Notes: generated from the sequence alone by a model not told the origin. A stretch of DNA of 31,278 bases from Gemmatimonadales bacterium (GCA_035709185.1 DASTEX010000321.1:1-31278), one strand, 5' to 3'; shown: positions 140-28,452, counted from the first letter of the stretch. A program made the numbers and translations.

Positions 140-292
140 CCGGTGCCGAGTGCCGGGTGCCGGGTGCCACGTGCGGTTCTGGGTTCTTCGTTCGGTGCCC
201 GTCTGATGTCGTGTGACAAGACCTCTGGGGGTGACCCAGTACCGGGCACCCGGAACCGCCCTGGGCACCAGGCACGGGGCACTTGGAACCGC
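140..292. repeat. Element A: inverted heptamer tandem arrays (CGGGTGC-type left arm, GCACCCG-type right arm) with 40-nt spacer
   Basis: Left 140-198: ccggtgc cgagtgc cgggtgc cgggtgc cacgtgc ggttc tgggttc ttcgttc ggtgc. Right 239-292: gtaccgg gcacccg gaacc gccctgg gcaccag gcacggg gcacttg gaaccgc. Confidence 0.9.
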
Positions 293-321
293 TTGTAGCA
301 TCCCCGAACCGCCGTTATATT
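293..321 (+). promoter_or_regulatory. Putative sigma70 promoter of rpsO-pnp
   Basis: TTGTAG (293-298) - 17 nt - TATATT (316-321). Confidence 0.65.
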
Positions 322-368
322 GCCATGCTACAACAAATTACGATAACGCAGAGCGCAGGTAGCCAACG

Positions 369-629
369 ATGAGTCTCGACAAGCAGAGCGTGATCACCAA
401 GTACCGTGTGGCCGACAACGATACCGGTTCGGCCAGGGTACAGGTGGCGCTCCTGACTGAGCGGATCAACTCGCTCACCGACCACTTCCGAACCCATCCC
501 AAAGATCATCACGGACGGCGGGGCCTGCTCAAGATGGTGGGGGCGCGACGTCGCCTGCTCACCTACCTGAAGCGAACGGATCTGCAGACCTATCGTTCGC
601 TCATCGCCGATCTCGGCCTCAGGCACTAG
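369..629 (+). CDS. rpsO: 30S ribosomal protein S15
   Basis: 86 aa; [50 protein letters not shown] is the S15 signature. Confidence 0.98.
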
Positions 630-646
630 TCCGGAGTCGATCTCCC

Positions 647-680
647 AGGGGCGTCCCACCAGGCACAGTGAGACGCCCCT
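647..680 (+). promoter_or_regulatory. Stem-loop in the rpsO-pnp intercistronic region
   Basis: aggggcgtc-c-cac / caggcaca loop / gtg-a-gacgcccct; no U-tract follows. Confidence 0.5.
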
Positions 681-715
681 TGTCGCTATTGGTGTGTCCA
701 AGGATGGTAATTGAC

Positions 716-2797
716 GTGCATCGCATCGAAACCGATTTCGCGGGGCGGAAACTCACGATTGAAACCGGACGCATGGCCAAGCAGGCGGCCGGCTCGGCGG
801 TCATCCGGTTCGGCGATACCATGGTCCTCGCGGCCGTCACGGTGTCCCCCAACATCTCCGCTCTCCCGTTCTTCCCCCTCACCGTCGAGTACAAGGAAAA
901 GACCTACGCCGCGGGCAAGATCCCCGGCGGGTTCATCAAGCGCGAGGGCCGGCCTTCGGAAAAGGAAATCCTGGCCGGCCGGCTGATCGACCGGACCATC
1001 CGCCCGCTGTTCCCCGACGGCTTCCGCAACGAGGTGCAGGTCTTCGTGACGGTCATTTCGGCCGACCAGGAGAATGACGCCGACGTGCTGGGCCTGGTGG
1101 CGGCCTCGGTGGCGCTGAACCTGTCTCCGGTTCCGTGGCAGGGCCCGATCGCGGGAGTCCGGGTGGGCCGGGTGGACGGGCACTGGATCCTCAATCCCAC
1201 CTTCCAGCAGCTGGAGGTCTCTACCGTCGACCTGGTGGTGAGCGGCACGGCCGATTCCATCGTGATGGTGGAGGGCGGCGCCTTGGAGATCTCCGAGCCG
1301 GAAATGCTCGAGGCGCTCAAGGTGGCCCAGCACGGCATCCGCGACCTCATCGCGTTCGTCGGCCGCCTGCCGGCCGAAGCGGCCCATCGCAAGATGAGCT
1401 TCCAGCCGCCGGCCCAGGACCAGGAGCTGATCCGGAAGGTCCGCGAGCTGGCGGAGGAGCGGATGGCGCAGGCGATCAACGCGGGCGACAAGCATGCCCG
1501 CGCCACCGGCATCGCCGAGGTCAAGACCGCGGCGCTCGCCGCCCTGGCCGAGAGCTACCTGGAGCGGGTGCGCGAGGTCGGGGCCGAGCTGGACGACATC
1601 GAGTACCGGGTGATGCGCCGGCAGGTACTGGAAAAGGGCGAGCGGGTGGACGGCCGCGACCTCGATACCGTCCGGCCCATCAGCGTGGAAGTGGGGCTCC
1701 TGCCCCGGGTCCACGGGTCGGCCCTCTTCACCCGGGGCGAAACCCAGGCGCTCGTAGCGGTGACGTTAGGCACCAGCGATGACGAGCAGCGGATCGACAG
1801 CATCGACTTCGCGGGCGAGACCACCAAGTCGTTCATGCTGCATTACAACTTCCCGCCCTACTCCACCGGGGAAGTCAAGCCGATGCGCGGCACCAGCCGC
1901 CGGGAGATCGGGCACGGGGCGCTGGCGGAACGGGCCCTCCAGGCGCTGCTCCCCGCCTTCGAGAGCTTCCCCTACACCCTGCGGGTGGTATCGGAAATCC
2001 TCGAGTCCAACGGCTCGTCCTCCATGGCCACCGTCTGTGGCGGCTCCTTGGCGCTGATGGACGCGGGGGTGCCGATGAAGGCGCCCTGCGCCGGCGTCGC
2101 CATGGGCCTGGTCAAGGAAGGCTCCCGGACCGCCATCCTGACCGACATCCTCGGGGCCGAGGATCACCTGGGCGACATGGACTTCAAGGTGGCGGGGACC
2201 GAGCAGGGGATCACCTCCATCCAGATGGACATCAAGATCACCGGGCTCGACCTGGGCATTCTGGGCCAGGCGCTGGAGAAGGCGCGCAAGGCGCGGCTCC
2301 ACGTGCTGCGCGAGATGGGCAAGGTGCTGAACCGTCCCCGCCAGGACCTCTCGCCTTTCGCGCCGCGGATCATCACCATCCAGATCAAGCCGGAGAAGAT
2401 CGGCGACGTGATCGGTCCCAAGGGCAAGACCATCCGCGGGATCCAGGACGCCACCGGCGCCAAGATCTCGGTGGAGGACAGCGGCCTGGTGACCATCGCG
2501 GCGGTGGGGGGCGAAGCGGGCCAGAAGGCCCGGGACATGGTCGCCGCCATCGTGGCCGAGCCCGAAGTGGGCCGGACCTACGAGGGACAGGTCAAGAGCG
2601 TGGTGCCCTTCGGCGCGTTCGTCGAGATCATTCCGGGCGTCGAGGGCCTGCTGCACATCAGCGAGCTGCAGCACGGACGGACCGAGAAGACCGAGGACGT
2701 GGTGAAGGTGGGCGATACCGTCACGGTGAAGCTGCTTGAGGTAGACGAGCGCGGCCGGATGCGGCTCTCCCGCAAGGCCCTGCTGCCCAAGGCCTGA
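716..2797 (+). CDS. pnp: Polyribonucleotide nucleotidyltransferase (PNPase)
   Basis: GKIPGGFIKREGRPSE, FMLHYNFPPYSTGE, RREIGHGALAERA, ESNGSSSMA and EDHLGDMDFKVAG motifs, then KH and S1 domains. Start placed at GTG 716 (MHRIET) after AAGGA; ATG 704 is an alternative. Confidence 0.97.
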   Translation: MHRIETDFAGRKLTIETGRMAKQAAGSAVIRFGDTMVLAAVTVSPNISALPFFPLTVEYKEKTYAAGKIPGGFIKREGRPSEKEILAGRLIDRTIRPLFPDGFRNEVQVFVTVISADQENDADVLGLVAASVALNLSPVPWQGPIAGVRVGRVDGHWILNPTFQQLEVSTVDLVVSGTADSIVMVEGGALEISEPEMLEALKVAQHGIRDLIAFVGRLPAEAAHRKMSFQPPAQDQELIRKVRELAEERMAQAINAGDKHARATGIAEVKTAALAALAESYLERVREVGAELDDIEYRVMRRQVLEKGERVDGRDLDTVRPISVEVGLLPRVHGSALFTRGETQALVAVTLGTSDDEQRIDSIDFAGETTKSFMLHYNFPPYSTGEVKPMRGTSRREIGHGALAERALQALLPAFESFPYTLRVVSEILESNGSSSMATVCGGSLALMDAGVPMKAPCAGVAMGLVKEGSRTAILTDILGAEDHLGDMDFKVAGTEQGITSIQMDIKITGLDLGILGQALEKARKARLHVLREMGKVLNRPRQDLSPFAPRIITIQIKPEKIGDVIGPKGKTIRGIQDATGAKISVEDSGLVTIAAVGGEAGQKARDMVAAIVAEPEVGRTYEGQVKSVVPFGAFVEIIPGVEGLLHISELQHGRTEKTEDVVKVGDTVTVKLLEVDERGRMRLSRKALLPKA

Positions 2798-2801
2798 GCG
2801 G

Positions 2802-4118
2802 GTGCGGATCGAGCAGCTGGACGAGCGGCTCGTCCGGTACGTCGCGCCTAACGGCCTTCGGGTCCTGACGGAGTCGCTGCCGGGCGTGCGCTCGGCCGCG
2901 GTGGGCCTGTGGGTCCGGTCGGCCTCGGTCCACGAGCCGGCCCACCTGATGGGCATTTCCCACCTGCTCGAGCACATGGTCTTCAAGGGCACCGAGCGGC
3001 GCACGCCCCGCGAGATCGCCCTCGAGCTGGAGAGCCGGGGCGGGTCGCTCGATGCGTTCACCTCCCGCGATCACACCGCCTTCCAGGCCCACGTGCTCGA
3101 TGCCGACCTGCCGGTGGCCATCGAGGTGATCACCGACCTGGTGCGGCGGCCCCTGCTCCGCCAGAGCGACCTGGAGCTGGAGCGCAATGTCATCCTGGAA
3201 GAAATCAGCAGTGTGCACGACGCGCCCGACGATGTGGTCTTCGAGCTGCACGCCCGCGCGCTGTGGCCCTCCCATCCCTACGGCTATTCCATCCTGGGAA
3301 CGGCCGAGACGGTGCAATCGATCACGGTCGACGACCTGCGGGCCACCCATGCCGCGGGCTACTATCCCGGCAACTGCATCATCACCGCGGCGGGCAATCT
3401 CGCCCCCGACCAACTGCTGACGGTGCTGGAGCGCGAAGGCTGGTTCGAGGGCTCCGAGGCGACGCCGCCCCTGCCGCCGGTGCCGTCCACGCCGGCCGCG
3501 CGGGGTGAACGGGTCATGGAGCCGCGCGACAGCCAGCAGTGCCACCTGGTCATCGGCACCGACACGGTGTCCAGCCGGGACCCCCGCCGCTACGGCTTCG
3601 CCCTGATCTCCACCGTCCTGGGCGGCGGCATGTCCAGCCGGCTGTTCCAGCAGATCCGGGAAGAGCTCGGGCTGGCCTACGCGGTGTTCTCCTTCCAGCA
3701 GTTCTACCAGACCACGGGAGTGACCGGGGTCTACCTCGGCACCCAGGCCGAGACGGCCGCCCAGGCCACCGATCTGGTGCTGGGGGAGTGCGGGCGGCTG
3801 GCCCGGGAAGGGCTGCCGGCCGAAGACCTGGTTTCCGCCAAGCAGCAGCTCAAGGGTCAGATCATGCTGTCGCTCGAGAGCCCCATGAGCCGGATGCACC
3901 GGCTGGGCGGCGTGGAGCTGGCCCGCGACCGCTACCGCCGGCTCGACGAAATCCTGGCGGAGATCGACGCCGTGACGCCGGACGAGGTCCGGGCCATCGG
4001 GGAGGAGTTCTTCCACCCCGACCGGCAGACCATCGTGCACCTGGGCCCCTTCGGTCCCCGCATCGTGCGGGACGAGCCCCGGGCGGCCGCGCGCAGCCTG
4101 TCATCCCGCGACGCCTGA
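2802..4118 (+). CDS. M16 family (pitrilysin/MPP-like) zinc peptidase
   Basis: Inverted zinc motif HLLEH (GISHLLEHMVFKGT), GGSLDAFTS, GGGMSSRLFQQIRE; usual position after pnp. Confidence 0.93.
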   Translation: MRIEQLDERLVRYVAPNGLRVLTESLPGVRSAAVGLWVRSASVHEPAHLMGISHLLEHMVFKGTERRTPREIALELESRGGSLDAFTSRDHTAFQAHVLDADLPVAIEVITDLVRRPLLRQSDLELERNVILEEISSVHDAPDDVVFELHARALWPSHPYGYSILGTAETVQSITVDDLRATHAAGYYPGNCIITAAGNLAPDQLLTVLEREGWFEGSEATPPLPPVPSTPAARGERVMEPRDSQQCHLVIGTDTVSSRDPRRYGFALISTVLGGGMSSRLFQQIREELGLAYAVFSFQQFYQTTGVTGVYLGTQAETAAQATDLVLGECGRLAREGLPAEDLVSAKQQLKGQIMLSLESPMSRMHRLGGVELARDRYRRLDEILAEIDAVTPDEVRAIGEEFFHPDRQTIVHLGPFGPRIVRDEPRAAARSLSSRDA

Positions 4119-4145
4119 ACCACGAATCGCGACTTCGAGGAGAAC

Positions 4146-5261
4146 ATGATCATCGGTGTCCCCAGGGAGATCAAAACCAACGAGAACCGGGTTGCGGTGG
4201 TCCCCGCGGGCGTGGAGCTGCTGGTAGGCGCGGGTCATACCGTCTACGTCGAAGCCGGCGCCGGACTCGGCAGCGGGTTCCCCGATGAGGCGTACCAGAA
4301 GGCCGGCGCGCGGCTGCTCACCCCGGCCGAAGAGGTGTGGAGCAAGGCCGAGATGATCGTGAAGGTGAAGGAACCCATCGCAGCGGAATGGCCCCGGATG
4401 CGGCCGGGGCAGGTGATCTACACCTACTTCCATTTCGCGGCGTCGGAAGAGCTGACCCGGGCGGTGCTCGATTCCGGCGCGGTGGCGGTGGCCTACGAGA
4501 CGGTGCAGCTGCCTAACGGCGAGCTCCCGCTGCTCACGCCCATGTCGGAAGTGGCCGGCCGCATGGCGGTGCAGGAAGGCGCCAAGTACCTGGAGAAGGT
4601 CCACGGGGGCCGGGGCGTGCTGCTGGGCGGGGTGCCCGGGGTGGCGCCGGCCGAGGTGGTCATCCTCGGGGGCGGCGTGGTCGGCATCAACTCGGCCAAG
4701 ATCGCGGCCGGCATGGGCGCCCACGTCACCATCCTCGATATCTCGCTCGACCGGCTGCGCTACCTCGACGACGTGCTGCCCACCAACGTCGATACGGTCT
4801 ACAGCAACCGGTACAATATCCTGGACGCGGTATCGCGGGCCGATCTCGTGGTCGGCGCGGTCCTGCTCACGGGCGCCAAGGCGCCCCACCTGATTCTGCG
4901 GGACGATCTCAAGCTGATGAAGCCGGGCGCCGTGGTGGTGGACGTGGCGGTGGACCAGGGCGGCTGCGTCGAAACCATCAAACCCACCACCCACGAGAAC
5001 CCCACCTATTTCGTGGACGGCATTCTCCATTACGCGGTCGCCAACATGCCGGGCGGCGTCCCGCGGACCTCCACCCTGGCCCTCACCAACGCCACCATGC
5101 CCTACGGTCTCAAGCTGGCCCGCTACGGCTGGAAGGAAGCCTGCCGGAAGGACCCTGCGCTCCGGCTGGGGCTCAACGTGGTCGAGGGACGCACGGTGTA
5201 CCCCGGCGTGGCGGAGGCCTTCGGGCTGCCGCTCACCAGCGTCGACGCCGTACTGCAGTGA
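4146..5261 (+). CDS. ald: Alanine dehydrogenase
   Basis: [47 protein letters not shown]; SD GAGGAG upstream. Confidence 0.96.
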
Positions 5262-5285
5262 GGGGTGAGGTGTGAGGCGTGAGGT
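5258..5285 (+). repeat. Element F: single heptamer tandem array (GTGAGGN)x4
   Basis: gtgaggg gtgaggt gtgaggc gtgaggt; contains the ald stop (5259-5261) and the in-frame dut GTG (5272). No inverted partner seen nearby. Confidence 0.85.
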
Positions 5286-5730
5286 TGGCGCTCTGCCCGA
5301 CATCATGGTGCGGCGGCTCCCCCATGGCGAGGGGCTGCCCCTCCCGGCGCGCGCCACCGCCGGCTCGGCCGGGTATGACATCGCCAGCGCCGAGGACGCG
5401 ATGGTGGGCCCGCTGGAGCGGCGGCTGGTCCGGACCGGCTTTGCCTTTGCCATCCCGCCCGGTTATGAAATGCAGGTGCGGCCGCGCTCCGGCCTGGCGC
5501 TCCGCCAGGGGCTCACGCTCCCGAACACGCCGGCCACCATCGACAGTGATTACCGGGGCGAGCTGATGATCGCGGTGGTGAACCTGGGCGCGGTCCCGGT
5601 CGAGGTCACCCGCGGGATGCGGATTGCGCAACTGATCATTGCGAAGGTCGAGAGTCCCGCGATGGTCGAAGTGGGGGAACTCCCCGAGACCCCACGGGGG
5701 GACGGCGGGTTCGGCAGTACCGGGACCTGA
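5272..5730 (+). CDS. dut: dUTP diphosphatase (trimeric dUTPase)
   Basis: [23 protein letters not shown] and [10 protein letters not shown] motifs. Exact start uncertain. Confidence 0.96.
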
Positions 5731-5829
5731 GACTGGCTCCGGTCTCGCGTCTGGCAAACGACTTGCTCTGAACCGGCTCTGCAGCCTCTCGCCGGTTCGG
5801 TGAGGACCCGAGAGACTGCTTAACATGGC

Positions 5830-5858
5830 TTGTCGAAGTGCAAGCCTCATTTTAACTT
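5830..5858 (+). promoter_or_regulatory. Putative sigma70 promoter of the mre/mrd operon
   Basis: TTGTCG (5830-5835) - 17 nt - TAACTT (5853-5858), in an AT-richer patch before mreB. Confidence 0.55.
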
Positions 5859-5886
5859 AGGCGCCAGCCTACCCCTAAGAAACTAA

Positions 5887-6921
5887 ATGAAGTTTCCCTT
5901 CAGCCTGGACCGCCTCCTGCCCGCCAACGAGATCGCGGTCGATCTGGGCACGGCAAATACGCTCATCTATGTAAAAGGCGAGGGAATCGTCCTCAACGAG
6001 CCGTCGGTGGTGGCCATCGAACGCTCGACCGGGAAGATCAAGGGCATCGGCCTGGAAGCCAAACGGATGCTGGGCCGCACCCCCGAAGGCATCATCGCGG
6101 TTCGGCCGCTCAAGGACGGCGTCATCGCCGACTTCGACGTGACCGAGAAGATGCTGCGCTACTTCCTCAAGACGATCATCGACAAGCACCTCTTCCGGGT
6201 GAAGCCCAAGGTGATCGTCTGCGTGCCGTCGGGCATCACCGAGGTGGAGCGCCGCGCGGTGCGCGACTCGGCGGAAACCGCCGGGGCCAAGGAAGTCCTG
6301 ATGGTGGCCGAGCCGATGGCGGCGGCAATCGGGGTGGGCCTGCCGGTCGAGACGCCCACCGGCAACATGGTGATCGACATCGGCGGCGGCACCACCGAGA
6401 TCGCGGTCATCGCGCTCTCCGGCATCGTCTGCGACACCTCGATCCGGACCGGGGGCGACGAGCTCGACCAGGCCATCGTGCAGTTCATGCGGAAGAACTA
6501 CAACCTCCTGGTGGGAGAACCCACCGCGGAGGCCATCAAGATCAAGATCGGTTCCGCCTGGCCGGTGGGCGAAGAGCGCGAGATGGAAGTGAAAGGCCGG
6601 GACCTGGTGTCCGGCATCCCGAAAACGGTCCGGGTGCACTCGGCCGAGATTCGCGAGGCGGTCCAGGAGCCGATCCAGCAGGTGGTGGATGCGGTCCGGC
6701 GGGCGCTGGAAATCACCCCGCCCGAACTCTCGAGCGATATCGTGGACCGCGGCATCGTCATGACCGGCGGTGGCGCGCTCATTCGCGGGCTCGACGTCCT
6801 GCTGGCGCAGGAAACCGGCCTGCCGATCCACGTAGACGAAGACCCGCTCACCTGTGTCGTGCGCGGTACCGGCCGCATTCTCGACGAATTCGACAAGTAC
6901 CGCAGCGTCCTGACGACCTGA
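5887..6921 (+). CDS. mreB: Rod shape-determining protein MreB
   Basis: IAVDLGTANT, RPLKDGVIADF, AEPMAAAIG, DIGGGTTE, GIVMTGGGAL. Confidence 0.98.
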   Translation: MKFPFSLDRLLPANEIAVDLGTANTLIYVKGEGIVLNEPSVVAIERSTGKIKGIGLEAKRMLGRTPEGIIAVRPLKDGVIADFDVTEKMLRYFLKTIIDKHLFRVKPKVIVCVPSGITEVERRAVRDSAETAGAKEVLMVAEPMAAAIGVGLPVETPTGNMVIDIGGGTTEIAVIALSGIVCDTSIRTGGDELDQAIVQFMRKNYNLLVGEPTAEAIKIKIGSAWPVGEEREMEVKGRDLVSGIPKTVRVHSAEIREAVQEPIQQVVDAVRRALEITPPELSSDIVDRGIVMTGGGALIRGLDVLLAQETGLPIHVDEDPLTCVVRGTGRILDEFDKYRSVLTT

Positions 6922-6922
6922 C

Positions 6923-11356: not shown

Positions 11357-11490
11357 AAAGTGCCGAGTGCCTGGGTGCCGGGTGCCGGGTTCGGTACCGG
11401 GTACCGGGTACTTGGTACGGGTACTCCGGTGGCCAAGACCCAGGTACCAGGCACGGCACGGGGTACGGGGAACCCGGCACCGGGCACTCT
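11357..11490. repeat. Element B: inverted heptamer tandem arrays with 19-nt spacer
   Basis: Left 11357-11424: aaagtgc cgagtgc ctgggtgc cgggtgc cgggttc ggtac cgggtac cgggtac ttggtac gggtac. Right 11444-11490: gtaccag gcacg gcacggg gtacggg gaacccg gcaccgg gcactct. Confidence 0.9.
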
Positions 11491-12478: not shown

Positions 12479-12480
<2 letters not shown>

Positions 12481-12568
12481 TTCAGCGATTTAGCGATTTA
12501 GCGATTTAGCGATTACCAACCCTTGACGGTCAACCCAATCGCTGAATCGCCAGATCGTAAAATCGTGA
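12479..12568. repeat. Element E: inverted octamer tandem arrays with 22-nt spacer
   Basis: Left 12479-12514: gattcagc gatttagc gatttagc gatttagc gatt. Right 12537-12568: aatcgctg aatcgcca gatcgtaa aatcgtga (reverse complement type). Fills the whole accD-folC gap. Confidence 0.9.
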
Positions 12569-12569: not shown

Positions 12570-13805
12570 ATGAACCTGTCCTACACCGAAGCGCTTCAGT
12601 TCCTCTACCCCCGAACCCAGAACTATAAATTCGGCCTGGAGCGCACCGAGCGTCTCCTCGACGAGCTGGGCCGTCCCGACCGGGTTTACCCGGTGATCCA
12701 CGTCGGGGGCACCAACGGCAAGGGCAGCGTGGCGACGCTCATGGCCGAAACCCTGCGCACCGCCGGGTGGCGCACCGGGCTCTACACCTCGCCTCACCTG
12801 GTCTCGTTCCGGGAGCGGTACCTGGTGGACGGGGCGCCGATCAGCGAGGGCGCGGCCGCGATGTGGATTCAGCGGCTCCGGCCGCTCACGGAGGAGATCG
12901 ACGCCACCTTCTTCGAGGTGGGAACCGCGCTGGCCTTCGCCGACTTTGCCGCGCGCGGGGTGGAGATCGCCGTCATCGAAGTCGGCCTGGGGGGCCGGCT
13001 CGACAGCACCAACGTGGTCCGCCCGGTGCTGTCGGTCATCACCAAGATCGAGCTGGATCACCAGAAGTATCTCGGAGACACGCTGGAGCAGATCGCGGCC
13101 GAGAAAGCCGGGATTGCCAAACCGGGCGCGCCGTTGGTAGTGGGGGAAACCCGGCCGGCGCTGATCGAGGTACTGAGGCGGGAAGGGCAGCGGGCCATCG
13201 GGGCGCTCGATCCCGCCGCTACGCTCGACTTCCGGCTGGTTCCGGGCGACGAGTTGTACCAGGGTCCCCTGCGCCTGGTCGGAAGTCACCAGCGGCGCAA
13301 CGCCGCCGTGGCCCGGGCCGCGCTGCACGCGCTGCCGGATCGGTGGAAGCCTCCCGAGCCAGCGATCGAGCGCGCCTTTGCCCGGGCCACCGTCCCGGGC
13401 CGGCTGGATCGCCGGGGCCGCTGGATCTTCGACGTGGCGCACAACCCGGACGGCGTGCGGGCGCTGGTCCGGACGCTGAAGGAGCTGAATCCGCCGGGTC
13501 CGGTCGTGGCGCTGGTATCGATCCTGGGCGACAAGGCGTGGCCGGAAATGCTGGTAACCCTGGATCAGGCCATCGATCACGGCATCCTCACCATCGCGCC
13601 CTCGGCCGACACGCGGCGATGGGACCTGGAATGGCTGCGGCGCTGGCTGCGCGAGCCCGACCGTCCGCCGGCGCGGGCCCGATGGCAGCTGATTCCCGAT
13701 TTCCACCAGGCCCTGCGTGAGGCGCAGGCTGAGGCCGGGACGATTCTCGTGACCGGCAGCTTTCACACGGTGGGCGATGTGATGGGGGCGGTGGGGATAC
13801 TCTAG
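12570..13805 (+). CDS. folC: Bifunctional folylpolyglutamate synthase/dihydrofolate synthase
   Basis: HVGGTNGKGS, YTSPHL, TFFE, EVGLGGRLDSTN, DVAHNPDG, VTGSFHTVG. Confidence 0.95.
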   Translation: MNLSYTEALQFLYPRTQNYKFGLERTERLLDELGRPDRVYPVIHVGGTNGKGSVATLMAETLRTAGWRTGLYTSPHLVSFRERYLVDGAPISEGAAAMWIQRLRPLTEEIDATFFEVGTALAFADFAARGVEIAVIEVGLGGRLDSTNVVRPVLSVITKIELDHQKYLGDTLEQIAAEKAGIAKPGAPLVVGETRPALIEVLRREGQRAIGALDPAATLDFRLVPGDELYQGPLRLVGSHQRRNAAVARAALHALPDRWKPPEPAIERAFARATVPGRLDRRGRWIFDVAHNPDGVRALVRTLKELNPPGPVVALVSILGDKAWPEMLVTLDQAIDHGILTIAPSADTRRWDLEWLRRWLREPDRPPARARWQLIPDFHQALREAQAEAGTILVTGSFHTVGDVMGAVGIL

Positions 13806-13971
13806 TGCCGCGTGCCGGGTGCCGGGTGCCGAGTGCGGTTCAGGGTGCGGGGTGCACGGTGCACACCTCCACCCAGGCAGTCGCGGCACTGAACCGGGCA
13901 CACCTGAACGGCACTCGGTACCGGGCCCGCTGAACGGCACCCGGTACGCGGCACCCGGCACGCTGAGCCCG
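13802..13971. repeat. Element C: inverted heptamer tandem arrays with 23-nt spacer
   Basis: Left 13802-13862: ctagtgc cgcgtgc cgggtgc cgggtgc cgagtgc ggttc agggtgc ggggtgc acggtgc. Right 13886-13971: gcact gaaccgg gcacacct gaacg gcactcg gtaccgg gcccgct gaacg gcacccg gtacgcg gcacccg gcacgct gagcccg. Confidence 0.9.
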
Positions 13972-19635: not shown

Positions 19636-19741
19636 GACGGCTGGGCTAAGTCGAGTCCTGTGTTAGCATTGGCGCACTTCTTGCTCGGCTGACTTGTATC
19701 TTTTTGCAGCCCTTCCTTCAGCGGAGCCAAGAACTCCTGCA

Positions 19742-21085: not shown

Positions 21086-21094
21086 GGAGAAATC

Positions 21095-21967
21095 ATGCCA
21101 CGGGTCAGCATCGGGATGCCGGTGTACAACGGGGAACGCTATCTCCGCTTCTCGCTCGAATCGCTGCTGGGGCAGAGCTTCGGCGACTTCGAGCTGGTGA
21201 TTTCGGATAATGCTTCGACCGATGGAACCCAGGATATCTGCCGGGGATACGAGGCCCGGGACCGCCGGGTGCGGTACACCCGGACGGATTCCAACATCGG
21301 TGGTCCCGCCAATTTCCGCCGGGTATTCCGTCTCTGCACCGGCGAGTACCACAAGTGGTCCACGGCCGACGATTACTGGGACTTGACCACCATCGAGAAG
21401 TGTGTCGCCGTGCTCGACCGGCATCCCGACGTGGCGCTGGTCTACCCCAAGTCCCTGCTCGAGGACGCCGACGGGAACCTGCTCCAGCGCTACGACGACC
21501 ACCTCCACCTGATGGAGGACTCGGCCGTGCAGCGCTTCAAGAAGGTGGTAGAGACGGCCACGCTCTGCCACGCACACCTGGGCGTTCTGCGCCGCAGCGC
21601 CATGGAGCAGACCGCGCTGATCGGGAACGAGGTCGCTTCCGATCTCCGGTTCCTGGCCGAGATGAGCCTCTACGGGAAGTTCTACGTGGTTCCGGAATAC
21701 CTCTTCCACCGCCGCTTTCACGAGGCGTCATCCAGCTGGGACCGCCAGAGTTCCGATTGGCAGCGGCAGTACTACGATCCATCGCACCGCTCGCTCTTCG
21801 GCCTGCACACCTGGCGGCGGTACTTCAATCTCGGACTGGCCGTGGTGCGCGCCCCGCTGCCCGGGGCGGAGAAGTGGAGCCTGCTCCACTACGTGGCCCG
21901 CAAGGCTCGGTGGCAGCGCCGCAAACTGTGGGCGGAGCTCAAGTCACTGGGCCATATCCGGACCTAA
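21095..21967 (+). CDS. Glycosyltransferase family 2
   Basis: VSIGMPVYNGERYL, VISDNASTDGT, ADD; SD GAGGAG. Confidence 0.92.
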   Translation: MPRVSIGMPVYNGERYLRFSLESLLGQSFGDFELVISDNASTDGTQDICRGYEARDRRVRYTRTDSNIGGPANFRRVFRLCTGEYHKWSTADDYWDLTTIEKCVAVLDRHPDVALVYPKSLLEDADGNLLQRYDDHLHLMEDSAVQRFKKVVETATLCHAHLGVLRRSAMEQTALIGNEVASDLRFLAEMSLYGKFYVVPEYLFHRRFHEASSSWDRQSSDWQRQYYDPSHRSLFGLHTWRRYFNLGLAVVRAPLPGAEKWSLLHYVARKARWQRRKLWAELKSLGHIRT

Positions 21968-21968
21968 T

Positions 21969-22421
21969 TCAGGCGCCCTTCTCGTCCAGCAGCTGGAGCA
22001 GGTCCTCGCGCGAGGCGAGGCTCATCAGCCGGGGTGGAACGTCGGGCTCGCGCACGAACTGGGCGATCTTCCCCAGGACCGGGAGGTACTGGTTGGAGAC
22101 CTCCATCGGCGGGGCCACGATGAGGAAGAACACCCGCACCGGCTGACGGTCCATCGCGTTCATCTCGATGCCGGTCCGGTGCCGGCCGAACGCGAGCCGG
22201 AGCCGCGAGACCGCCAGGGTGCGGCAGTGCGGGATGGCCACGCCGTGGCCGAACCCGGTGGATCCCAGCAGCTCCCGGCGGATCAGCTGCCGGACCACCG
22301 TGCTCGCCGGTTTCTCGTTGAGCCGCAGCAATCCCACCAGGTGGGCAAAGACTTCATCCCGCCCGGTTCCAGCCAGCTCGAGGTCCACCGCGTCAGCTTC
22401 CAGGAAATCGCGCAGCCGCAT
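21969..22421 (-). CDS. Stand-alone PTS EIIA domain protein (PtsN/fructose-mannitol IIA family)
   Basis: RELLGSTGFGHGVAIPH (phospho-His), VRVFFLIVAP; ATG at 22421. Confidence 0.9.
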   Translation of the reverse strand: MRLRDFLEADAVDLELAGTGRDEVFAHLVGLLRLNEKPASTVVRQLIRRELLGSTGFGHGVAIPHCRTLAVSRLRLAFGRHRTGIEMNAMDRQPVRVFFLIVAPPMEVSNQYLPVLGKIAQFVREPDVPPRLMSLASREDLLQLLDEKGA

Positions 22422-22427
22422 GGCCCA

Positions 22428-22507
22428 AACGTAACCCGCGGCGCGGACTACGGTCAAAAATCGGTCAACCTTGTCGTGTTGCCGCGCCCCGTATGGCTAA
22501 CTAATTT
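22428..22507. promoter_or_regulatory. Divergent promoter pair for PTS IIA (-) and dusB (+)
   Basis: Minus: TTGACC (22457-22452) - 18 nt - TACGTT (22433-22428). Plus: TTGCCG (22479-22484) - 17 nt - TAATTT (22502-22507). Each -10 is 6 nt before its ATG. Confidence 0.6.
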
Positions 22508-22513
22508 TGGGAT

Positions 22514-23497
22514 ATGAGGTTACCCTACGCCCCCGCGCGGAGCACGCCGCTCATCCTGGCCCCCATGGCCGGGGTGTCGGAAGCGCCCTTCCGGCAGATC
22601 TGCCGTCGGATGGGAGCGGACATCCTCATGACCGAGTTCCTGGCGGCCGAAGCCATCCGCCGCGGCATCCGGAAGACGCTGGAAGGGTGCGAATTCGAAG
22701 AAATCGAGCGCCCGATCGGTATCCAGATTTACGGGGCCGCCCCCGAGGCGATGGGGCGCGCTGCCGCGATCGTGAGCGAGGCGTATCAGCCCGAGTTCAT
22801 CGACATCAACTTCGGGTGCCCGGTAAAGAAGGTGGTGCAGCGCAACGGCGGTTCGGGCTGCCTCCGCGATCTGGATCTGGTCGAGCGGATCATCCGGGCG
22901 GTCGTAAGCGCCACGCCGGTGCCGGTAACGGTGAAGACCCGGAGCGGGTGGAGCGAGGAGTCCCGCGATCCGGTGGGCATCGCGCGGCGCATGCAGGACG
23001 CGGGGGCCCGCGCGTTCACCCTGCACGCCCGGACCCGCACCCAGATGTTCTCGGGCAAGGCCAGCTGGGACGAGATCGCGCGGGTGGTGGAGGCGCTCGA
23101 CATTCCGGTGATCGGCAACGGCGACATCCAGACGGCGGAAGACGCGGTCCGCATGCGGGATCATACCGGCTGCGCCGCGATCATGATTGGCCGCGGGTCG
23201 TTCGGCAATCCGTGGCTGTTCCGGGACGCGCGGGCGCTGCTCGACGGCGCCGTCCGGGCGGCGCCCCCCACGCCGGCCGAACGGTTCGTGCTGGCGCTGG
23301 AACATGCCCAGCTGGCGCTCCGCCTCCAGGGTGATTCGCGCTCGACCGTGATCGAGTTCCGCAAACACCTGGGGTGGTACACCCGGGGACTGCCCGGAGC
23401 ATCGGCCCTGCGCGAGCGGCTCTTCCAGGTCGATACCATGGCCGAGGCGGCCGGGATCTTTCATCAGTATCTGGAGCCGGTCGCCAGCGCCGCGTGA
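22514..23497 (+). CDS. dusB: tRNA-dihydrouridine synthase (DusB-like)
   Basis: LAPMAGVS, IDINFGCP, GGSGCL, VTVKTRSGW, LHARTR, IGNGDI, MIGRG. Confidence 0.93.
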   Translation: MRLPYAPARSTPLILAPMAGVSEAPFRQICRRMGADILMTEFLAAEAIRRGIRKTLEGCEFEEIERPIGIQIYGAAPEAMGRAAAIVSEAYQPEFIDINFGCPVKKVVQRNGGSGCLRDLDLVERIIRAVVSATPVPVTVKTRSGWSEESRDPVGIARRMQDAGARAFTLHARTRTQMFSGKASWDEIARVVEALDIPVIGNGDIQTAEDAVRMRDHTGCAAIMIGRGSFGNPWLFRDARALLDGAVRAAPPTPAERFVLALEHAQLALRLQGDSRSTVIEFRKHLGWYTRGLPGASALRERLFQVDTMAEAAGIFHQYLEPVASAA

Positions 23498-24252
23498 ACC
23501 GGACTGCACTGGAGGTCCTGCTGGCCGACGTGGCGGCCGGGCGAATCAGCCCGGGTGACGCGCTCGCCCGGCTGCGTCATTTCCCCGACGAAGACCTCGG
23601 TTTCGCGACCCTGGACCATCAGCGCACCATCCGGCAGGGTCAGCCCGAGGTCGTGTTCTGTGAAGGAAAATCGGTGGACCAGGTGGTGCGGATCTGCGAC
23701 CGGCTGATGGCGGCCTCGGGCGGGTTTCTCGCCACCCGGGCGGGCCCGGCGCAGGCCGAAGCGGTGCTGGACCGAATCCCCGACGCCCGCTGGGACCCGT
23801 TAGGCAGGACCCTCTGGCGGCCGGTCGACCCCTCCGCGGCGCCAGGAGGTTCGCTGGTCCTGGTCGTGACCGCGGGCACTGGTGATCTCCCGGTCGCGGC
23901 CGAGGCCGCGGTCACAGCCGGCGCCTGGGGAGCCCGGGTGGAGCAGCTGAACGACGTCGGCGTGGCAGGACTGCACCGCCTGTTGACCCGGAACGCCCTG
24001 CTGCGCACGGCCGGCGCCATCATCGTCGTCGCCGGCATGGAGGGGGCGCTGCCGAGCGTCGTCGGAGGACTGGTGGATGTGCCGGTGATCGCGGTGCCCA
24101 CCAGCGTGGGATACGGAGCCTCGTTCGGCGGCCTGGCCGCGCTCCTCGGGATGCTGAACTCGTGCGCGGCCGGGGTGACTGTGGTCAACATCGACAACGG
24201 GTTCGGAGCCGGCGTGGCGGCCGCACGCATAACGACCCGGGAGGGCACGTGA
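23494..24252 (+). CDS. larB: Nickel-pincer cofactor biosynthesis protein LarB (AIR carboxylase/PurE-like)
   Basis: [64 protein letters not shown]; GTG 23494 overlaps the dusB stop. Confidence 0.9.
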
Positions 24253-25196
24253 TCCGGACTATCCTCACCGCCGAACGTCACGGCGTCACCTGGATCGACG
24301 TCACCGCCCCCACTCCCGAAGAACTGCACCAGATCGCGCATCGCCACGGCCTCCACCCTACGGTGGTGGAGGACTGCCTGGACCCGGCCCATCTGCCCAA
24401 GTACGAGAAGCAGGAAGAGGCCACCTTCATCATTCTGCGGGTATGGGGCGAGCGCCCGGAACGCACCGGTGAGGCGGTCCAGGACGTCAGCCGGAAGATC
24501 GCGCTGTTCACCCGGGGCGACCTGCTGCTCACGATTCACCGGGCCGACCTCGCCCTCATCCAGCGGGTGGAGAAGGAGTGGACCCTCCGGAAGTACGATG
24601 GCGGCGAGCGCGCCATGGTGCCGGCCATCTTCGCGGACATCGCGACCGAGGCCTTCAGCTCCTACGATCAGCCGCTGGACGATGCGGAAGAGACGCTGAT
24701 GGCCTTCGAACGCGCGTTGTTCGATCCCAAGTCCCGGCCGCCGGCCCTGTTCGCCATTCACCAGCTCAAGGGGAGGCTGGGACTGATCCGGCGGATGCTC
24801 TGGCTCACCTCCGGCGTCATCCTGAAATCGGGTGGAGGCCAGGAGCGCACCACCCCGCTGCACCAGGACCTGCGCGAGACCGCCGACAGCTATCTCTTCT
24901 ACACCGATCAGCTGCTGGACCAGACCCATGACCTGCTCACGATCCACCTGGCCGTCGCGTCCCACCGGACCAACGAAGTGATGCGCGTGCTCACGGTGTT
25001 TTCCGCGTTCTTCCTGCCACTGACGTTCATCGTCGGGCTCTACGGCATGAACTTCGTGCACATGCCGGAGCTGGGCTGGCGGCTGGGCTATCCCATGGTT
25101 CTGGCCGTGATGCTCGCGGTCAGCCTGGCCATCTTCACCTGGTTCCGCCGGCGCGGCTGGCTCCGCCGGGTGGGTGGGGAGGAAGAGACGTTGTGA
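24249..25196 (+). CDS. corA: CorA family Mg2+/Co2+ transporter
   Basis: [24 protein letters not shown] (GMN motif), MPEL; GTG 24249. Confidence 0.92.
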
Positions 25197-26602
25197 CGCT
25201 CGACTGGATCCTGGCCCTGCTGGGTGTGGCCTTCGGAGCGGTGCTCGGCTGGGTCGCGGCCCGGACCGTGGGCCCCAGGCTGCTGTCCTCGGCCCCAGCC
25301 ACCGCGCGTCCCCAGTCCCGTCCCGCAGTGATGAGCGATCCACCGGAGCTGGCCTGGATTGCCCGGGCGAATGCGGCCGCCGGCGTCTGGCTCCGGCGGG
25401 GGGTCCGGAGCAACGTCGTCTCGGTGACCCTGGGGGCCGTACCCGGCAGTCTGCAGCAGGCGATCGCAGCCCGGCTGGCCACCCTGGCTTCGGCCGGAGG
25501 GCGGACCGAGGTGGAACGGCTCGAGGACGGTGTCACGGTGTACGTCGCGTCCGAGGATGTGCAGCTCGCGATGCTGCTGGCACCGAAGCAGCCGTTCGCC
25601 CAGGCCCAGCGGGACCTCGAGGGGCTGCTGGGCGTGCTGCGGACCCGGGAGCTGCTGGAGATCGCCTCCCAGAAGCCGGCCGGGTCCGGCGAGACGATCA
25701 ACAGCGTGGCGATCCGGCTGGCCATGGAAATCGAGCGGTTCCTCGATGCCGAGGCGGCCGTGGTGGTCCGCCAGCCCCGCGGTCCTCAGGTCATCGGCAC
25801 ATCGGTGCGGGCCGATCCCCACCTTCACCGGGTGGTGGCGCTGCCCGGGTCGGCCGTCGACGAGGCGGTGCGGGGTGAGGGGGACGGAATGGTGATGGCC
25901 TATGACCCGTTAGGCGTTCTCCCGCCGGACCGGCGCCACCGGGAGCGGCGAGCCTTCATCCTCCCGCTGGTGAACGCCGGCACCAAGCTGGGCGCCGTGG
26001 TGCTCTGGCCCCCCAGCGGCGTCGAGCCCACCGGGCCGATCAAGGCGGAGCTGGATCGGATGATCCAGCGGGCCGCGCCCCGGCTGGAAGACGCCATCCA
26101 GCGCATGGAGCTGCAGGAACGGGCCATTCGCGATCCGCTCACCGGGCTGCGCAACCGGCGGGGGATGACCGAGGCCATGGGGGCCATCGAAGCCCAGCGG
26201 GGGGCGGTGGTGGTCTTCGACCTCGACCACTTCAAGGCTCTCAACGACAATCTGGGTCACCCCGCGGGCGACTCGGCGCTGCAGACGGTGGCGGGGATCC
26301 TGGAGGAAATCGTGCGGGACGGCGATACGGCCGCCCGGGTGGGCGGCGAGGAATTCGCCGTCTGGATCCGGGACGCAACCATGGAGGACGGTATGGCGGT
26401 GGCCGAACGGATCCGGTCGCGGATCGAGCACGTGAACTGGCAGTGGCAGGGGCGACGCTGGCCCATGACCGCCAGCTTTGGGGTGGCGTCGTGGCCCGAG
26501 ACCACCCGTCACCGGGACAACCTGCTGGCCCAGGCGGACGCGGCCCTCTACCGGGCGAAGGAGAAGGGGAGGAATCGGGTGGAGAGAGCAAGTAAGGACT
26601 AA
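25193..26602 (+). CDS. Membrane-anchored diguanylate cyclase (GGDEF)
   Basis: N-terminal TM helix; [26 protein letters not shown], RxxD I-site (RDGD) and GGEEF. Confidence 0.92.
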
Positions 26603-26629
26603 GGACTAAGGACTTAGGACTTAGCTCTT
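26595..26629 (+). repeat. Element G left arm: (AGGACTW)x4 plus one degenerate unit
   Basis: aggacta aggacta aggactt aggactt agctctt; contains the DGC stop (26600-26602) and the four-helix-gene stop (26623-26621). Confidence 0.92.
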
Positions 26630-27005
26630 CCCCTTGAGGTCTGTTCTCGGATCGACGCTTCGGCGCAGCCCAGCCACAACCCGTGAGGTCTCGCAGCAAA
26701 GCTCAACCAGTTCGCGGTAGGTTCGCTGGTCAACGAGGCCGGCATCGAAGCTGTGGTGCACCAGGCTCCTCACCTCGGCGAGAGAGCCTTTGGCAATGGA
26801 CAGGAACTGGTGGAACTCCCGCCTTCCGCCCCGCTCGAACCCCTCGGCAATATTGGACATCACTGAAAAGCCGGCTGAGTAGCTGGGCCTTCAGTTTGAA
26901 GTGGGGCCGAAACGGCTGGGTTGATGTAACCCTGGCCACGGCGCTCGCGAGCCACCGAGCCTTCTGCCAGGCAATCAGATCTTCGAAGACGCGGACAGGA
27001 GCCAC
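26621..27005 (-). pseudogene. Four-helix-bundle protein (23S rRNA intervening-sequence protein family, PF05635/TIGR02436-like), frameshifted near 26873
   Basis: Frame 1 from GTG 27005: FEDLIAWQKAR...KAQLLS. The +1 frame continues GFSVMSNIAEGFERGGRREFHQFLSIAKGSLAEVRS. These are the family hallmarks F+DL.AWQKA and SNIAEGF. Family assignment is by motif recognition. Confidence 0.88.
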
Positions 27006-27092
27006 CGCTCAAATACTGCGAGAAAGTGCCGAGCCGCGGTAACCGGAAAGCCGCCTCCGGCACCAATTAAGCCCCTGGCTCTCGAGCCACCC

Positions 27093-27113
27093 AAGTCCTA
27101 AGTCCTAAGTCCT
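27093..27113 (-). repeat. Element G right arm: (AAGTCCT)x3, reverse complement of the left arm
   Basis: aagtcct aagtcct aagtcct followed by degenerate tgtcttg. Confidence 0.92.
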
Positions 27114-27142
27114 TGTCTTGGAATGCGGTAGGAGTTTAGATT
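27113..27142 (+). promoter_or_regulatory. Putative sigma70 promoter of ssrA
   Basis: TTGTCT (27113-27118) - 18 nt - TAGATT (27137-27142). Confidence 0.5.
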
Positions 27143-27159
27143 TTACGTCACTTAGGAAG

Positions 27160-27519
27160 GGGGGCGACCGGTTTCGACGGGTCAGAGGAGCTTGTGGTTG
27201 CGCGTCCAGGTCCAGGTTCCTGGTTAAACCGCTTGGAAACACACAACTGCCAACACCAACTTGGCACTGGCTGCGTAAGCTGAGCTTAGCTCGCTGAAGC
27301 ACCACCGGTGAACGAAGCCCGCCTGGGGCGTCGCCGCCGGGTCGAAAATCCGGGCTGGTCCGACGCGATCTTCCGGCGCGAAGGACGAGATCTCAGGAAG
27401 TCGGTGGTGGGAAGTCTGGCCGGTCGACGGCCCACTGCTCAGGCAAGAAGATCGGCCTACGCGCGTAGATACTGCGAGGGATGCTGATTCGGACCAGGGT
27501 TCGATTCCCTGCGCCTCCA
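27160..27519 (+). ncRNA. ssrA: tmRNA, tag peptide (A)ANTNLALAA
   Basis: 5' GGGGGCG pairs with 3' CGCCTCC-A (G3.U wobble); D-loop-like GTTTCGAC; T-arm CAGGGTTCGATTCCCTG; tag ORF 27249-27278 gcc aac acc aac ttg gca ctg gct gcg taa. Confidence 0.97.
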
Positions 27520-27524
27520 TCAGG

Positions 27525-27560
27525 AATACAAAGGGCCCGGCAACCGGGCCCTTTGTATTT
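27525..27560. terminator. Bidirectional intrinsic terminator after ssrA
   Basis: AATACAAAGGGCCCGG-CAA-CCGGGCCCTTTGTATT, a perfect 16-bp stem with T-rich tails on both strands. Confidence 0.9.
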
Positions 27561-27680
27561 CCCATCTGGTCCGGACCTGGCCCTGCATATGCGACGACGG
27601 AAGCGGAAGTGCTCTACCCGGCGGCGATCCTGGTCGGGGATTTTATCCGGGCCCGGCGGTCGGCCAGATAAGTCGGCTCC

Positions 27681-28244
27681 TTACTTCGACTCCTCCAGCG
27701 GAAGCGACACGCGAGTGTGCTCCCACTCGAGAATCAGTTTGCCCCAGCCGCCCTTGGCTTCCGAGCGAATGGTGAACTGCTCGATGTGCTCCTCCAGCTT
27801 CCAGGCCTTGACCTTCCCCCGGCCGACTTCCTGCTTCTTGATCGCCTCGTTGTAGGAACCTTCATCGCCCCACTGTTCCACCGAGCGGTTGATCACGATC
27901 TCCCATTCGGTGGGTCCCGGTATGGTGTAGAGCGAATACACGCCCTGGTCCAGCTCTACCCCGGCGATGACGACCGGGCCACTGGCGTGGATCATGGTGG
28001 GCTCGTTGGCGCCGGTCCGCCACAGCTTGCCGAAGGGGACATTGTGACCGCCGAGCATGGTGCGCCCGCGCGAGGAGGGCCGGCCATAACAGATCTTCAC
28101 CCGCGTGCTGCCGACCGTGAACGCCACCGAATCGAGCGGACTCGCCCGCTTGGCCAGCGAAGCCTGGCTGGCGCTGGTGATGCAGGCGGGGTCCTGGCGC
28201 GCGGGCAGGCCCAGCAACACGGCGGTAAACAGTTCCAGAATCAT
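27681..28244 (-). CDS. DUF2911 domain protein (probably exported)
   Basis: ASPLDSV, ICYGRPSSRGR, VPFGKLWRTGANEPT, YSLYTIPG, LEWEHTRV; hydrophobic N-terminus. Confidence 0.85.
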   Translation of the reverse strand: MILELFTAVLLGLPARQDPACITSASQASLAKRASPLDSVAFTVGSTRVKICYGRPSSRGRTMLGGHNVPFGKLWRTGANEPTMIHASGPVVIAGVELDQGVYSLYTIPGPTEWEIVINRSVEQWGDEGSYNEAIKKQEVGRGKVKAWKLEEHIEQFTIRSEAKGGWGKLILEWEHTRVSLPLEESK

Positions 28245-28278
28245 AAGAGTTTCTTACTCCGATGCAGAACGAAACAAT

Positions 28279-28452
28279 CCTGCCGATCGTTCCAAGTCCA
28301 CTGTTCCAGGTTCCGGGTTCCGTTCATCGTGCCTCGTTCGTGGTGTCCGACGATAGTGTGCATACGCCTTGTGAAAGGCCGGGGCACGCGGCACCAAGCA
28401 CCCGGAACCGCACGCGGAAACCCGGCACTCGGAACCCGGAACGATCGGCAGG
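28279..28452. repeat. Element D: inverted heptamer tandem arrays with 44-nt spacer and perfect 15-bp terminal inverted repeat
   Basis: Left: atcgttc caagtcc actgttc caggttc cgggttc cgttc atcgtgc ctcgttc. Right: gcacgcg gcaccaa gcacccg gaacc gcacgcg gaaacccg gcactcg gaacccg gaacgat. Termini cctgccgatcgttcc (28279-28293) / ggaacgatcggcagg (28438-28452). Confidence 0.9.

Follow-up and report, generated by a model that had tools for sequence, protein, structure and literature searches.

The window analyzed here, a stretch of 31,278 nucleotides from a Gemmatimonadales bacterium, is contig C321 of a draft genome (G000; 3.81 Mb, 731 contigs, 67.5% G+C, 77% complete) and holds six elements in which an arm of short tandem repeats is followed by an insert and by the inverted arm. 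One of them, element G, encloses a gene of the PF05635 family, the four-helix-bundle protein of 23S rRNA intervening sequences (IVSs), and the other five (A, B, C, D and E) are empty. Every PF05635 copy of G000 adjoins hairpin-type arrays, a design known from 23S IVSs, which suggests that the dispersed repeats and the gene family belong to one selfish element system. Our best explanation, with a probability of about one half, is that the six elements are one system of IVS-type gene cassettes and gene-less relatives that spread as selfish insertions. The observations behind it are the anatomy of the elements, their statistics across the genome, an insertion polymorphism among relatives, the match between each gene and its repeat unit, and the recurrence of the design in other phyla.

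The loaded and empty elements of the window

Tandem arms with reverse-complement partners were found at all six places by Tandem Repeats Finder and by direct reading of the window, and the six elements and one lone arm (element F) described in an earlier note on this DNA were all recovered at the same positions. Element G, with a GGDEF gene on one side and ssrA on the other, has three parts:

26593-26621, no strand: left arm, (TAAGGAC)x4.1, with the GGDEF stop codon (gene 25193-26602) inside it and the PF05635 pseudogene adjoining by its 3' end
26621-27066, minus strand: cargo, a PF05635 (23S rRNA IVS protein/four-helix-bundle) pseudogene, Pfam E = 1e-15
27093-27113, no strand: right arm, (AAGTCCT)x3, which reverse-complements the left arm and lies 46 nt upstream of ssrA

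With lengths of 29 and 21 nt, the arms enclose an insert of 471 nt and are paired in the minimum-energy RNA fold (z = -2.8 versus shuffles), in line with the earlier view of G as the loaded form of a layout common to all the elements. The Pfam match covers the C-terminal part of the cargo, at 26621-26863, whose frame differs from that of the N-terminal part at 26860-27066, and alignment with the intact orthologue of the closest relative (G007) revealed a 2-nt deletion that makes the gene a -2 frameshift pseudogene. The cargo sequence was found without a single difference in contigs of two other soil metagenomes, which means that the frameshift did not arise as an error in assembling this metagenome-assembled genome (MAG). 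The k-mer depth at the left arm was 427-1391 compared to 8-14 in the flanks in two independent soil metagenomes, so this unit is high-copy, and assemblers split contigs exactly at this arm. In G000, the unit family of the cargo comprises 121 arrays. Some short contigs from metagenomes run straight from one arm into the other and miss 465-472 nt; they were not taken as products of excision, because the overlap on one side is only 20-25 nt and they may stem from other empties.

The five empty elements each fold into one long RNA hairpin, with energies from -40 to -112 kcal/mol:

140-292, no strand: element A, empty hairpin; GGTGCCG-type heptamer arm at 142-174, loop region of ~68 nt, inverted CCGGCAC-type arm at ~243-292
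11357-11490, no strand: element B, empty compound hairpin in the rodA-accD gap; arms at 11360-11425 and 11455-11487
12479-12568, no strand: element E, empty 8-mer hairpin, GATTTAGC x4.5 / AATCGNNN; arms at 12479-12514 and ~12537-12568
13802-13971, no strand: element C, empty hairpin between folC and hisS; GTGCCGG-type arm at 13805-13864, inverted arm at 13935-13963
28279-28452, no strand: element D, empty hairpin with degenerate GTTCCGG/CCGGAAC arms at ~28295-28322 and 28383-28443

Element A (-94.3 kcal/mol) begins right behind the stop of a short gene end at the 5' edge of the window. Element B (-80.0 kcal/mol) consists of GTGCCGG and then GGTACCG arrays followed by their inverted partners, and element E (-40.5 kcal/mol) fills the accD-folC gap with its first unit overlapping the accD stop. 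The fold of element C is the strongest (-111.9 kcal/mol). The arms of element D (-90.8 kcal/mol), which lies between a DUF2911 gene (27681-28244, minus strand) and the next plus-strand open reading frame (ORF), sit inside an exact outer inverted repeat whose stem is paired. By eye, there is no T run behind the 3' arms of the window elements. The position of the genome's hairpins after stop codons would fit intrinsic terminators.

PF05635 genes are flanked by inverted arrays

All seven PF05635 matches in G000 adjoin arrays. Strict flanking meant that both sides carry arrays of equal period whose units are reverse complements within one mismatch; the repeat thresholds were our own, as was the simple GC3-based gene caller, which recovers the genes of the window. 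Four of the seven genes have both flanks assembled, and the arms of two (those on C321 and on C447, the latter with a GCTATCA-type unit) pass this test, the second arms on C374 and C279 being inverted but more degenerate as judged by eye; each of the remaining three either is truncated by a contig end or shows a single clear arm. In the control set, 3 of 566 small genes were so flanked, one of these being the PF05635 gene of the window itself, and the association of arrays with four-helix-bundle genes on which the earlier note had staked its reading is thus borne out genome-wide.

Across 25 Gemmatimonadales genomes, 43 of about 80 PF05635 genes are strictly flanked, with inserts of 363-1044 nt (median, ~470), and many further ones have degenerate arms. 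In samples of about 80 kb from each of four PF05635-free relatives, heptamer arrays number 0-2.4 per 100 kb and hairpins are absent, compared to 9.6-17 arrays per 100 kb in three of four PF05635-bearing relatives (G020, G014 and G017), a comparison that describes rather than tests since the relatives are kin. Five unrelated genomes (Acidobacteriota, Nitrospira and others) yielded one broken PF05635 gene, which is without arms.

Each gene lineage has its own repeat unit

The seven PF05635 genes of G000 have seven different arm units, and each exact unit is found in 9-67 arrays of the genome, compared to 0-3 occurrences for the units of 41 cassettes from other Gemmatimonadales genomes (Mann-Whitney p = 8e-5). 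Conversely, seven of the nine largest array families are within one mismatch of the unit of a resident cassette, and the amplified families so far without one are AACGGCT, AAGRYGGTCG 10-mers and ACCGTCCG. A random 100-kb sample of G020 contained 30 arrays, of which 12 match one of that genome's own cassette units, versus 0.37 for the average foreign unit; the same kind of effect was weaker in G014 and absent in G017. The identity of the encoded proteins also follows the arms, being 60% when the units are identical, 43% when they differ by one mismatch and 31% when they differ by more, and genes with AGGGTGT arms in Calothrix and in Gemmatimonadales share 43-44% protein identity. The earlier note had counted four unrelated unit sequences and had taken the elements to be defined by structure or period rather than by sequence. 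Neither view is supported, as the units belong to about a dozen families with tens of genome copies each, own units are amplified and foreign ones are not, and protein identity rises with unit identity even across phyla.

Junctions switch state among relatives

All of the 30 relatives that were searched have the gene order rodA-accD-folC-hisS, and most have junctions of 30-110 nt without repeats where B, E and C lie in the window (40-50 nt at folC-hisS); by this comparison, the window elements are derived insertions. The rodA-accD junction of G001 (L124, 1217-1421) carries a hairpin of another unit and period, the 9-mer GGCGGTTAG x15.7 / GCCCCAACC x4.2, which suggests that hairpins were gained repeatedly and independently at this gene end. 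At the accD-folC junction of G014 (L129, 2346-3188), the site of element E, there is an 840-nt insert with a lone (GAGACGA)x4.4 array after accD and, on the opposite strand, a cysteine-rich ORF of 204 codons that is not PF05635.

The site of element G is more informative, since a GGDEF gene lies directly upstream of ssrA in about 20 relatives. The junction is about 70 nt long in G002 and G006, likely the ssrA promoter alone; it holds an empty hairpin with an 11-nt loop in G001, an intact PF05635 gene between GGACTTA-type arms in G007 and the frameshifted gene in G000. By tmRNA and GGDEF protein, G007 is closest to G000, followed by G001 and then by G002 and G006, and this order together with the junction states indicates that the element was gained within the genus. 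The empty hairpin of G001 may represent the state before a gene was added or the state after a gene was lost from the cassette. The loaded and empty states that the earlier note had asked for at orthologous junctions thus occur within one genus, along with the state without any element.

A genome-wide population of polarized hairpins

In G000, arrays of period 7-10 number 1,579, and short hairpins at least 285. Period 7 predominates, with 938 arrays in 118 unit classes, the majority in a dozen classes, and periods 8, 9 and 10 add about 670 further arrays. Neighboring heptamer arrays are inverted in 224 cases, direct in 13 and unrelated in 203, and at a spacing of 1-130 nt there are about 200 inverted pairs versus 4 direct ones; this arm symmetry is far above chance and counts against simple slippage, the outcome by which the earlier note would have been overturned. 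The 285 hairpins have a median total length of 114 nt and start a median of 4 nt past a stop codon (interquartile range, 0-16), and they are found at 18% of convergent junctions compared to 6-7% of those that are tandem or divergent; by our gene caller, just 17% of heptamer arrays lie mostly within genes. Of the 285 hairpins, 266 have the G-rich arm on the 5' side and the C-rich one on the 3' side. As either strand of a hairpin reads alike, this polarity belongs to the element itself rather than to the way it is oriented. The arms contain a median of 4.4 units (interquartile range, 3.9-5.3).

Several other readings of these elements were tried and rejected. That the loops are decayed copies of one master does not agree with clustering, by which 242 of 266 loops are singletons, and a single sub-motif recurs, in the GGACTTA family: about half of the loops there (e.g., C122, 940-1053, and C324, 39-145) have an inner stem CCCCGCCCC...GGGGCGGGG with a G/C arm order opposite to that of the outer arms. 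Stops in three frames do not account for period 7, as stop triplets occur in 91 of 202 units versus 89 expected from shuffles; GGACTRA units do contain TAA/TGA and GAGGA. Longer inverted pairs (150-4000 nt) were also set aside; they are mostly the facing arms of two adjacent hairpins (C-rich arm first) on either side of ordinary host genes, e.g., RNase T and patatin.

A few arms enclose other genes. On C341 (10675-11125; L397), a 385-nt insert between (AAGGACT)x4.4 and (AGTCCTA)x5, the unit of element G, holds an orphan ORF of 102 codons that may be a second kind of cargo. A cold-shock protein gene on C307 (L401), an MGMT-type DNA_binding_1 gene on C153 (L398) and a 147-codon gene on C284 (L399) lie inside inverted 9- to 10-mer arrays. 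Neither of the orphan ORFs, on C341 and C284, has a match in Pfam or Atlas.

The same design in other phyla and in 23S rRNA

Outside the order, inverted arms are clear at about 14 of 17 PF05635 genes, a small sample that was chosen in part for resemblance to an armed gene and covers Chloroflexota, Gamma- and Alphaproteobacteria, Desulfobacterota, Cyanobacteria and Bacteroidota. Close homologues (52-71% identity) in Thermomicrobiales, a gammaproteobacterial MAG, Desulfobacterales and further contigs lie codirectionally within operons, between genes for an acyl-CoA ligase and a hydroxyacyl-CoA dehydrogenase, two epimerases, an RND adaptor and pump, or a methylase and a helicase. Four of five have (GGACTRA)n upstream and (TYAGTCC)n downstream, the unit of element G, and the fifth (L220) has a related GTGCTTA/TAAGCAC-type unit with less clear arms. 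This set was picked by protein similarity, and what it shows is that similar proteins of five phyla keep one unit. More distant members (30-40% identity) in Nostoc (two plasmids), Anabaena, Calothrix and Riemerella have inverted arms of other units, and three Mesorhizobium genes and one Luteimonas gene are armed as well, the last flanked by a Xanthomonas-like unit and, as read from its translated flanks, by accB and accC.

In the Anabaena sp. 90 (L346) and Pseudanabaena (L348) plasmids, the PF05635 gene lies between cas6 and cas4, in agreement with a report of 18 PF05635 genes in cas loci (PMC3936711); the flanking arrays of the Pseudanabaena gene are direct and its layout is more complex. The arrays at these two loci are very long, up to about 40 units.

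A copy in Azospirillum lipoferum (L351) is located inside 23S rRNA (Rfam LSU, 1132 bits) and has full heptamer arms, (GAGGACG/GATGACA)x3.9 and its inverse, which indicates that classical IVSs and intergenic cassettes are the same kind of object. Along with the tandem heptamers in the IVS of Coxiella (PMC4990558), this upholds the link to 23S IVSs drawn in the earlier note, and the link it drew to the STRR (short tandemly repeated repetitive) sequences of cyanobacteria holds too.

Proposed mechanism and alternatives

In the system that we propose, a cassette consists of a PF05635 gene of about 125-140 codons in about 470 nt and two arms of about 30 nt, made of 4-5 tandem 7- to 10-mers and their reverse complement, with the G-rich arm always 5' on either strand. 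Cassettes occupy gaps between host genes as insertions, here between the GGDEF gene and ssrA, elsewhere within operons and in some bacteria in 23S rRNA, and each PF05635 lineage has its own arm unit. In G000, this unit has also multiplied into tens of empties, built from an arm, a unique loop of 20-130 nt and the inverted arm and placed directly after stop codons, where they would persist most likely as 3' stem-loops that stabilize or terminate transcripts. We infer that loaded and empty elements spread as selfish insertions, and likewise any processing at the RNA level.

A solved relative of the protein, PDB 2gsc, has five chains and is cited in one paper (PMC3936711) as an assembly of five four-helix bundles. 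Four copies of the G007 protein were modelled with a self-association score of 0.63 versus 0.38 for the best control; this mark is reached by 21 of 30 proteins solved as one-chain pairs and by 0 of 23 single-chain proteins and is rough here, since four copies were modelled. Five subunits compared to 4-5 units per arm, and one unit per paralogue, suggest that an oligomeric ring could read 4-5 repeats of its own unit. A bolder version, which we hold to be unlikely, is that PF05635 oligomers are sequence-specific readers of tandem 7- to 10-mers and that each paralogue drives or guides the spread of hairpins of its cognate unit without a transposase or reverse transcriptase of its own, so that IVSs, STRR-type repeats and the heptamer excess of bacterial genomes would all be products of one protein-guided system of repeat propagation.

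A number of findings weigh against a selfish cassette system. No movement of the elements has been observed, the window contains no transposase, integrase or reverse transcriptase, no reverse transcriptase (PF00078) was found in the 77%-complete G000 genome, and no direct repeat or target-site duplication was seen at the borders of G. Roughly 15 of the 80 Gemmatimonadales genes are without arrays, and G025 has eight PF05635 genes with no arm pair at the five that were examined and 1.0 heptamer arrays per 100 kb. None of 96 metagenomic (GGACTRA)n arrays has a PF05635 gene within 900 nt, for which reason the prediction of a gene from an array was dropped. The near uniqueness of the loops means that empties are not simple copies of a master or uniform deletion derivatives, and a few small genes other than PF05635 (CspA, the MGMT-like domain and orphans) are found inside G-first arms. 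The draft is fragmented and incomplete, its contigs end at arrays, and the relatives are kin and hence not independent. Among metatranscriptome RNA contigs, the tmRNA is covered (27168-27508) and the cassette is not. Finally, RNase III (PF14622, PF00636 and TIGR02191) was not found in 15 Gemmatimonadales genomes (G000 and 14 relatives), four of which are 99-100% complete, and the same searches were positive in 8-9 control genomes. This weakens the idea of an RNA-processing cassette, and excision by RNase III was not adopted as the mechanism here; an IVS-style excision step may be absent, and in a lineage lacking this enzyme, long and perfect RNA hairpins might be tolerated. An RNA mechanism of the simple IVS type is disfavored by the failure to find RNase III in these genomes, by the lack of an RNA contig over the cassette, and by a dead gene in the window while its unit family thrives.

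It is possible, if somewhat doubtful, that the arrays are made by the host independently of the gene, as STRR-like repeats that arise by slippage and hairpin-templated repair at 3' ends and are kept as terminators or stabilizers, with PF05635 as a separate selfish gene that lands or survives in the loops and the empties as its landing pads. The location of hairpins at stops and terminator positions, including directly 3' of tmRNA in several relatives, fits such an origin, as do the unique loops, the great excess of arrays over genes, the metagenomic arrays with no gene nearby, the small host genes that are sometimes bracketed, and the arrays of Xanthomonas, Nostoc and Geobacter that have been described without a link to a gene (PMC4692102 and PMC2700814). 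However, host-made repeats would not explain why the same unit accompanies similar proteins across phyla (GGACTRA in five phyla at 52-71% identity and AGGGTGT in Calothrix and Gemmatimonadales), why arrays are scarce in PF05635-free relatives, or why the seven genes of G000 have seven different units, all of abundant families. Rather less likely again is a purely regulatory role without mobility, in which PF05635 proteins are trans-acting binders of tandem repeats, a ring reading 4-5 units as TRAP reads GAG, so that the arrays form a regulon at mRNA 3' ends and the arms of the gene itself are autoregulatory. One unit family per paralogue, an arm copy number that peaks at 4-5, the 2gsc pentamer and the predicted self-association would all agree with this, and the related protein Avd binds nucleic acid and reverse transcriptase in diversity-generating retroelements (DGRs). 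Yet the gene is wedged into unrelated operons and into 23S rRNA (accB-accC, an RND pump and cas6-cas4), which looks selfish rather than regulatory, its presence varies between close species, and the window copy is a pseudogene although its unit family of 121 arrays persists. Very improbable, and purely inferential, is an origin of the arms in templated repeat addition at DNA ends, akin to telomere-like break healing, with filler DNA or a gene captured between the extended ends. Extension of the 3' ends of both broken ends would give the polarity seen in 266 of 285 hairpins, the unique loops resemble filler DNA, and the units are short, tandem and G-rich, but neither a reverse transcriptase nor any other candidate polymerase turned up, and the placement at stop codons would be left unexplained.

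The lone arm and the genomic setting

Two further features belong to the window:

5258-5285, plus strand: element F, a lone array (GTGAGGN)x4 without an inverted partner (Tandem Repeats Finder and direct reading)
27160-27519, plus strand: ssrA (tmRNA), tag ANTNLALAA, a flanking landmark outside element G

Element F and the end of one gene (4146-5261) overlap, the array providing the TGA stop. The GTG start of the next gene (5272-5730) follows 10 nt on, behind GAGG motifs of the array, and F could be a candidate translational coupling spacer. Downstream of the tmRNA, the window has an ordinary short stem and a T run (27528-27560); in several relatives (L094, 1868-1995, and L105, L107, L113, L115 and L102), the terminator position immediately 3' of the tmRNA gene is taken by a tandem-repeat hairpin.

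The gene order of the window is rpsO, pnp ... mreB-like, PBP2, rodA, accD, folC, hisS ... GGDEF, element G, ssrA. The nearest matches of its PNPase are Gemmatimonadales MAGs at 78% identity, and an exact look-up of its HisRS in public contigs gave no match. The host organism is widespread in soils: positions 25800-27600 of the window are nearly complete (79-98% of sampled words present) in soil metagenomes of 8 studies, at least 14 runs in all.

Comparison with known systems

Three puzzles have remained separate in print: the nature of the ORF-bearing 23S IVSs, the excess of heptamers in some genomes (STRR, GGGAATC and others), and the role of PF05635 outside DGRs. We found no paper that joins IVS cassettes, heptamer arrays and PF05635; the separate pieces only were found. 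G000 stands at the extreme, having about a dozen unit families and each gene copy paired with one amplified repeat family, and junctions that switch between no element, an empty one and a loaded one within a genus make the link between gene and repeat directly testable. What is added here is the host with a dozen families, the match of gene to amplified family, the statistics of polarity and stop-codon placement, the three-state junction and the apparent lack of RNase III. A practical consequence is that such arrays break short-read assemblies, as the 731 contigs of G000 and the contig ends at arms illustrate.

The protein shares the four-helix-bundle fold family and the pentamer with bAvd of DGRs, and the Pfam family bAvd (PF22296) co-matches many homologues. 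In contrast to DGRs, the neighbors of G are a GGDEF gene and ssrA, and with no PF00078 match in G000, the earlier link to DGRs and Avd gains nothing and a DGR-type reading was dropped. Like MITEs (miniature transposable elements with inverted repeats) and repetitive extragenic palindromic (REP) sequences or bacterial interspersed mosaic elements (BIMEs), the G000 elements are short, abundant, intergenic, palindromic and located at gene 3' ends, and gene-less forms outnumber gene-bearing ones. They differ in lacking conserved internal sequence, as the singleton loops show, and in having arms of tandem micro-repeats instead of a fixed terminal sequence. Nor was a target-site duplication seen at G, or a transposase or gene of the REP-associated tyrosine transposase (RAYT) type found with the elements; PF05635 is the sole consistent gene inside the arms, although no genome-wide census of transposases was made.

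The closest parallels to the arrays are the dispersed heptamers of other bacteria. GGGAATC in Xanthomonas and GGGGAYT in Nostoc have been read as G-quadruplex motifs; these arrays prefer about 4 units and are found no more than 50 nt from stop codons, and Xanthomonas has 70-75 convergent inverted pairs with facing G-rich strands (Rehm et al. 2015, PMC4692102); Geobacter has elements of four GGACCGG heptamers (PMC2700814). These and STRR sequences share with our arrays the intergenic tandem heptamers, the preference for about 4 units and the proximity to stops, and many are transcribed in those systems. The arrays of G000 agree with the Xanthomonas and Nostoc type in being tandem, of about 4 units, non-coding, near stops and often in convergent inverted pairs. 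However, each unit there has a tract of 3-4 G, whereas most units of G000 are without G3 tracts, the main ones (GCAGAGT, GGACTTA, GTGCCGG, GACGATT and GATAGCT) having at most two adjacent G. Those papers describe one unit per genome and a G-quadruplex or regulatory role with no link to a gene or mobile element, in contrast to the dozen unit families of period 7-10 in G000, each tied to a PF05635 paralogue.

The closest parallel to the cassette is the 23S IVS of Leptospira and Coxiella. In Coxiella burnetii, the S23p IVS is 428-444 nt long, with a 28-bp stem and three tandem GACAGAT before the ORF, RNase III cuts at the first GACAGAT unit, in the stem, and the number of units varies by strain (PMC4990558). 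Unlike these IVSs, which sit in helix 9, 25 or 45 of 23S rRNA and are excised by an enzyme that did not turn up in the genomes searched here, element G lies outside rRNA, between a GGDEF gene and ssrA, in a host that also holds hundreds of gene-less hairpins of the same units. In both, nevertheless, a PF05635 gene occupies the loop, within a similar length (428-444 nt in Coxiella and about 470 nt between the arms here), terminal inverted repeats form a stem of about 28-30 bp, and tandem heptamers stand ahead of the ORF, which is decaying in some Coxiella strains as it is in the window.

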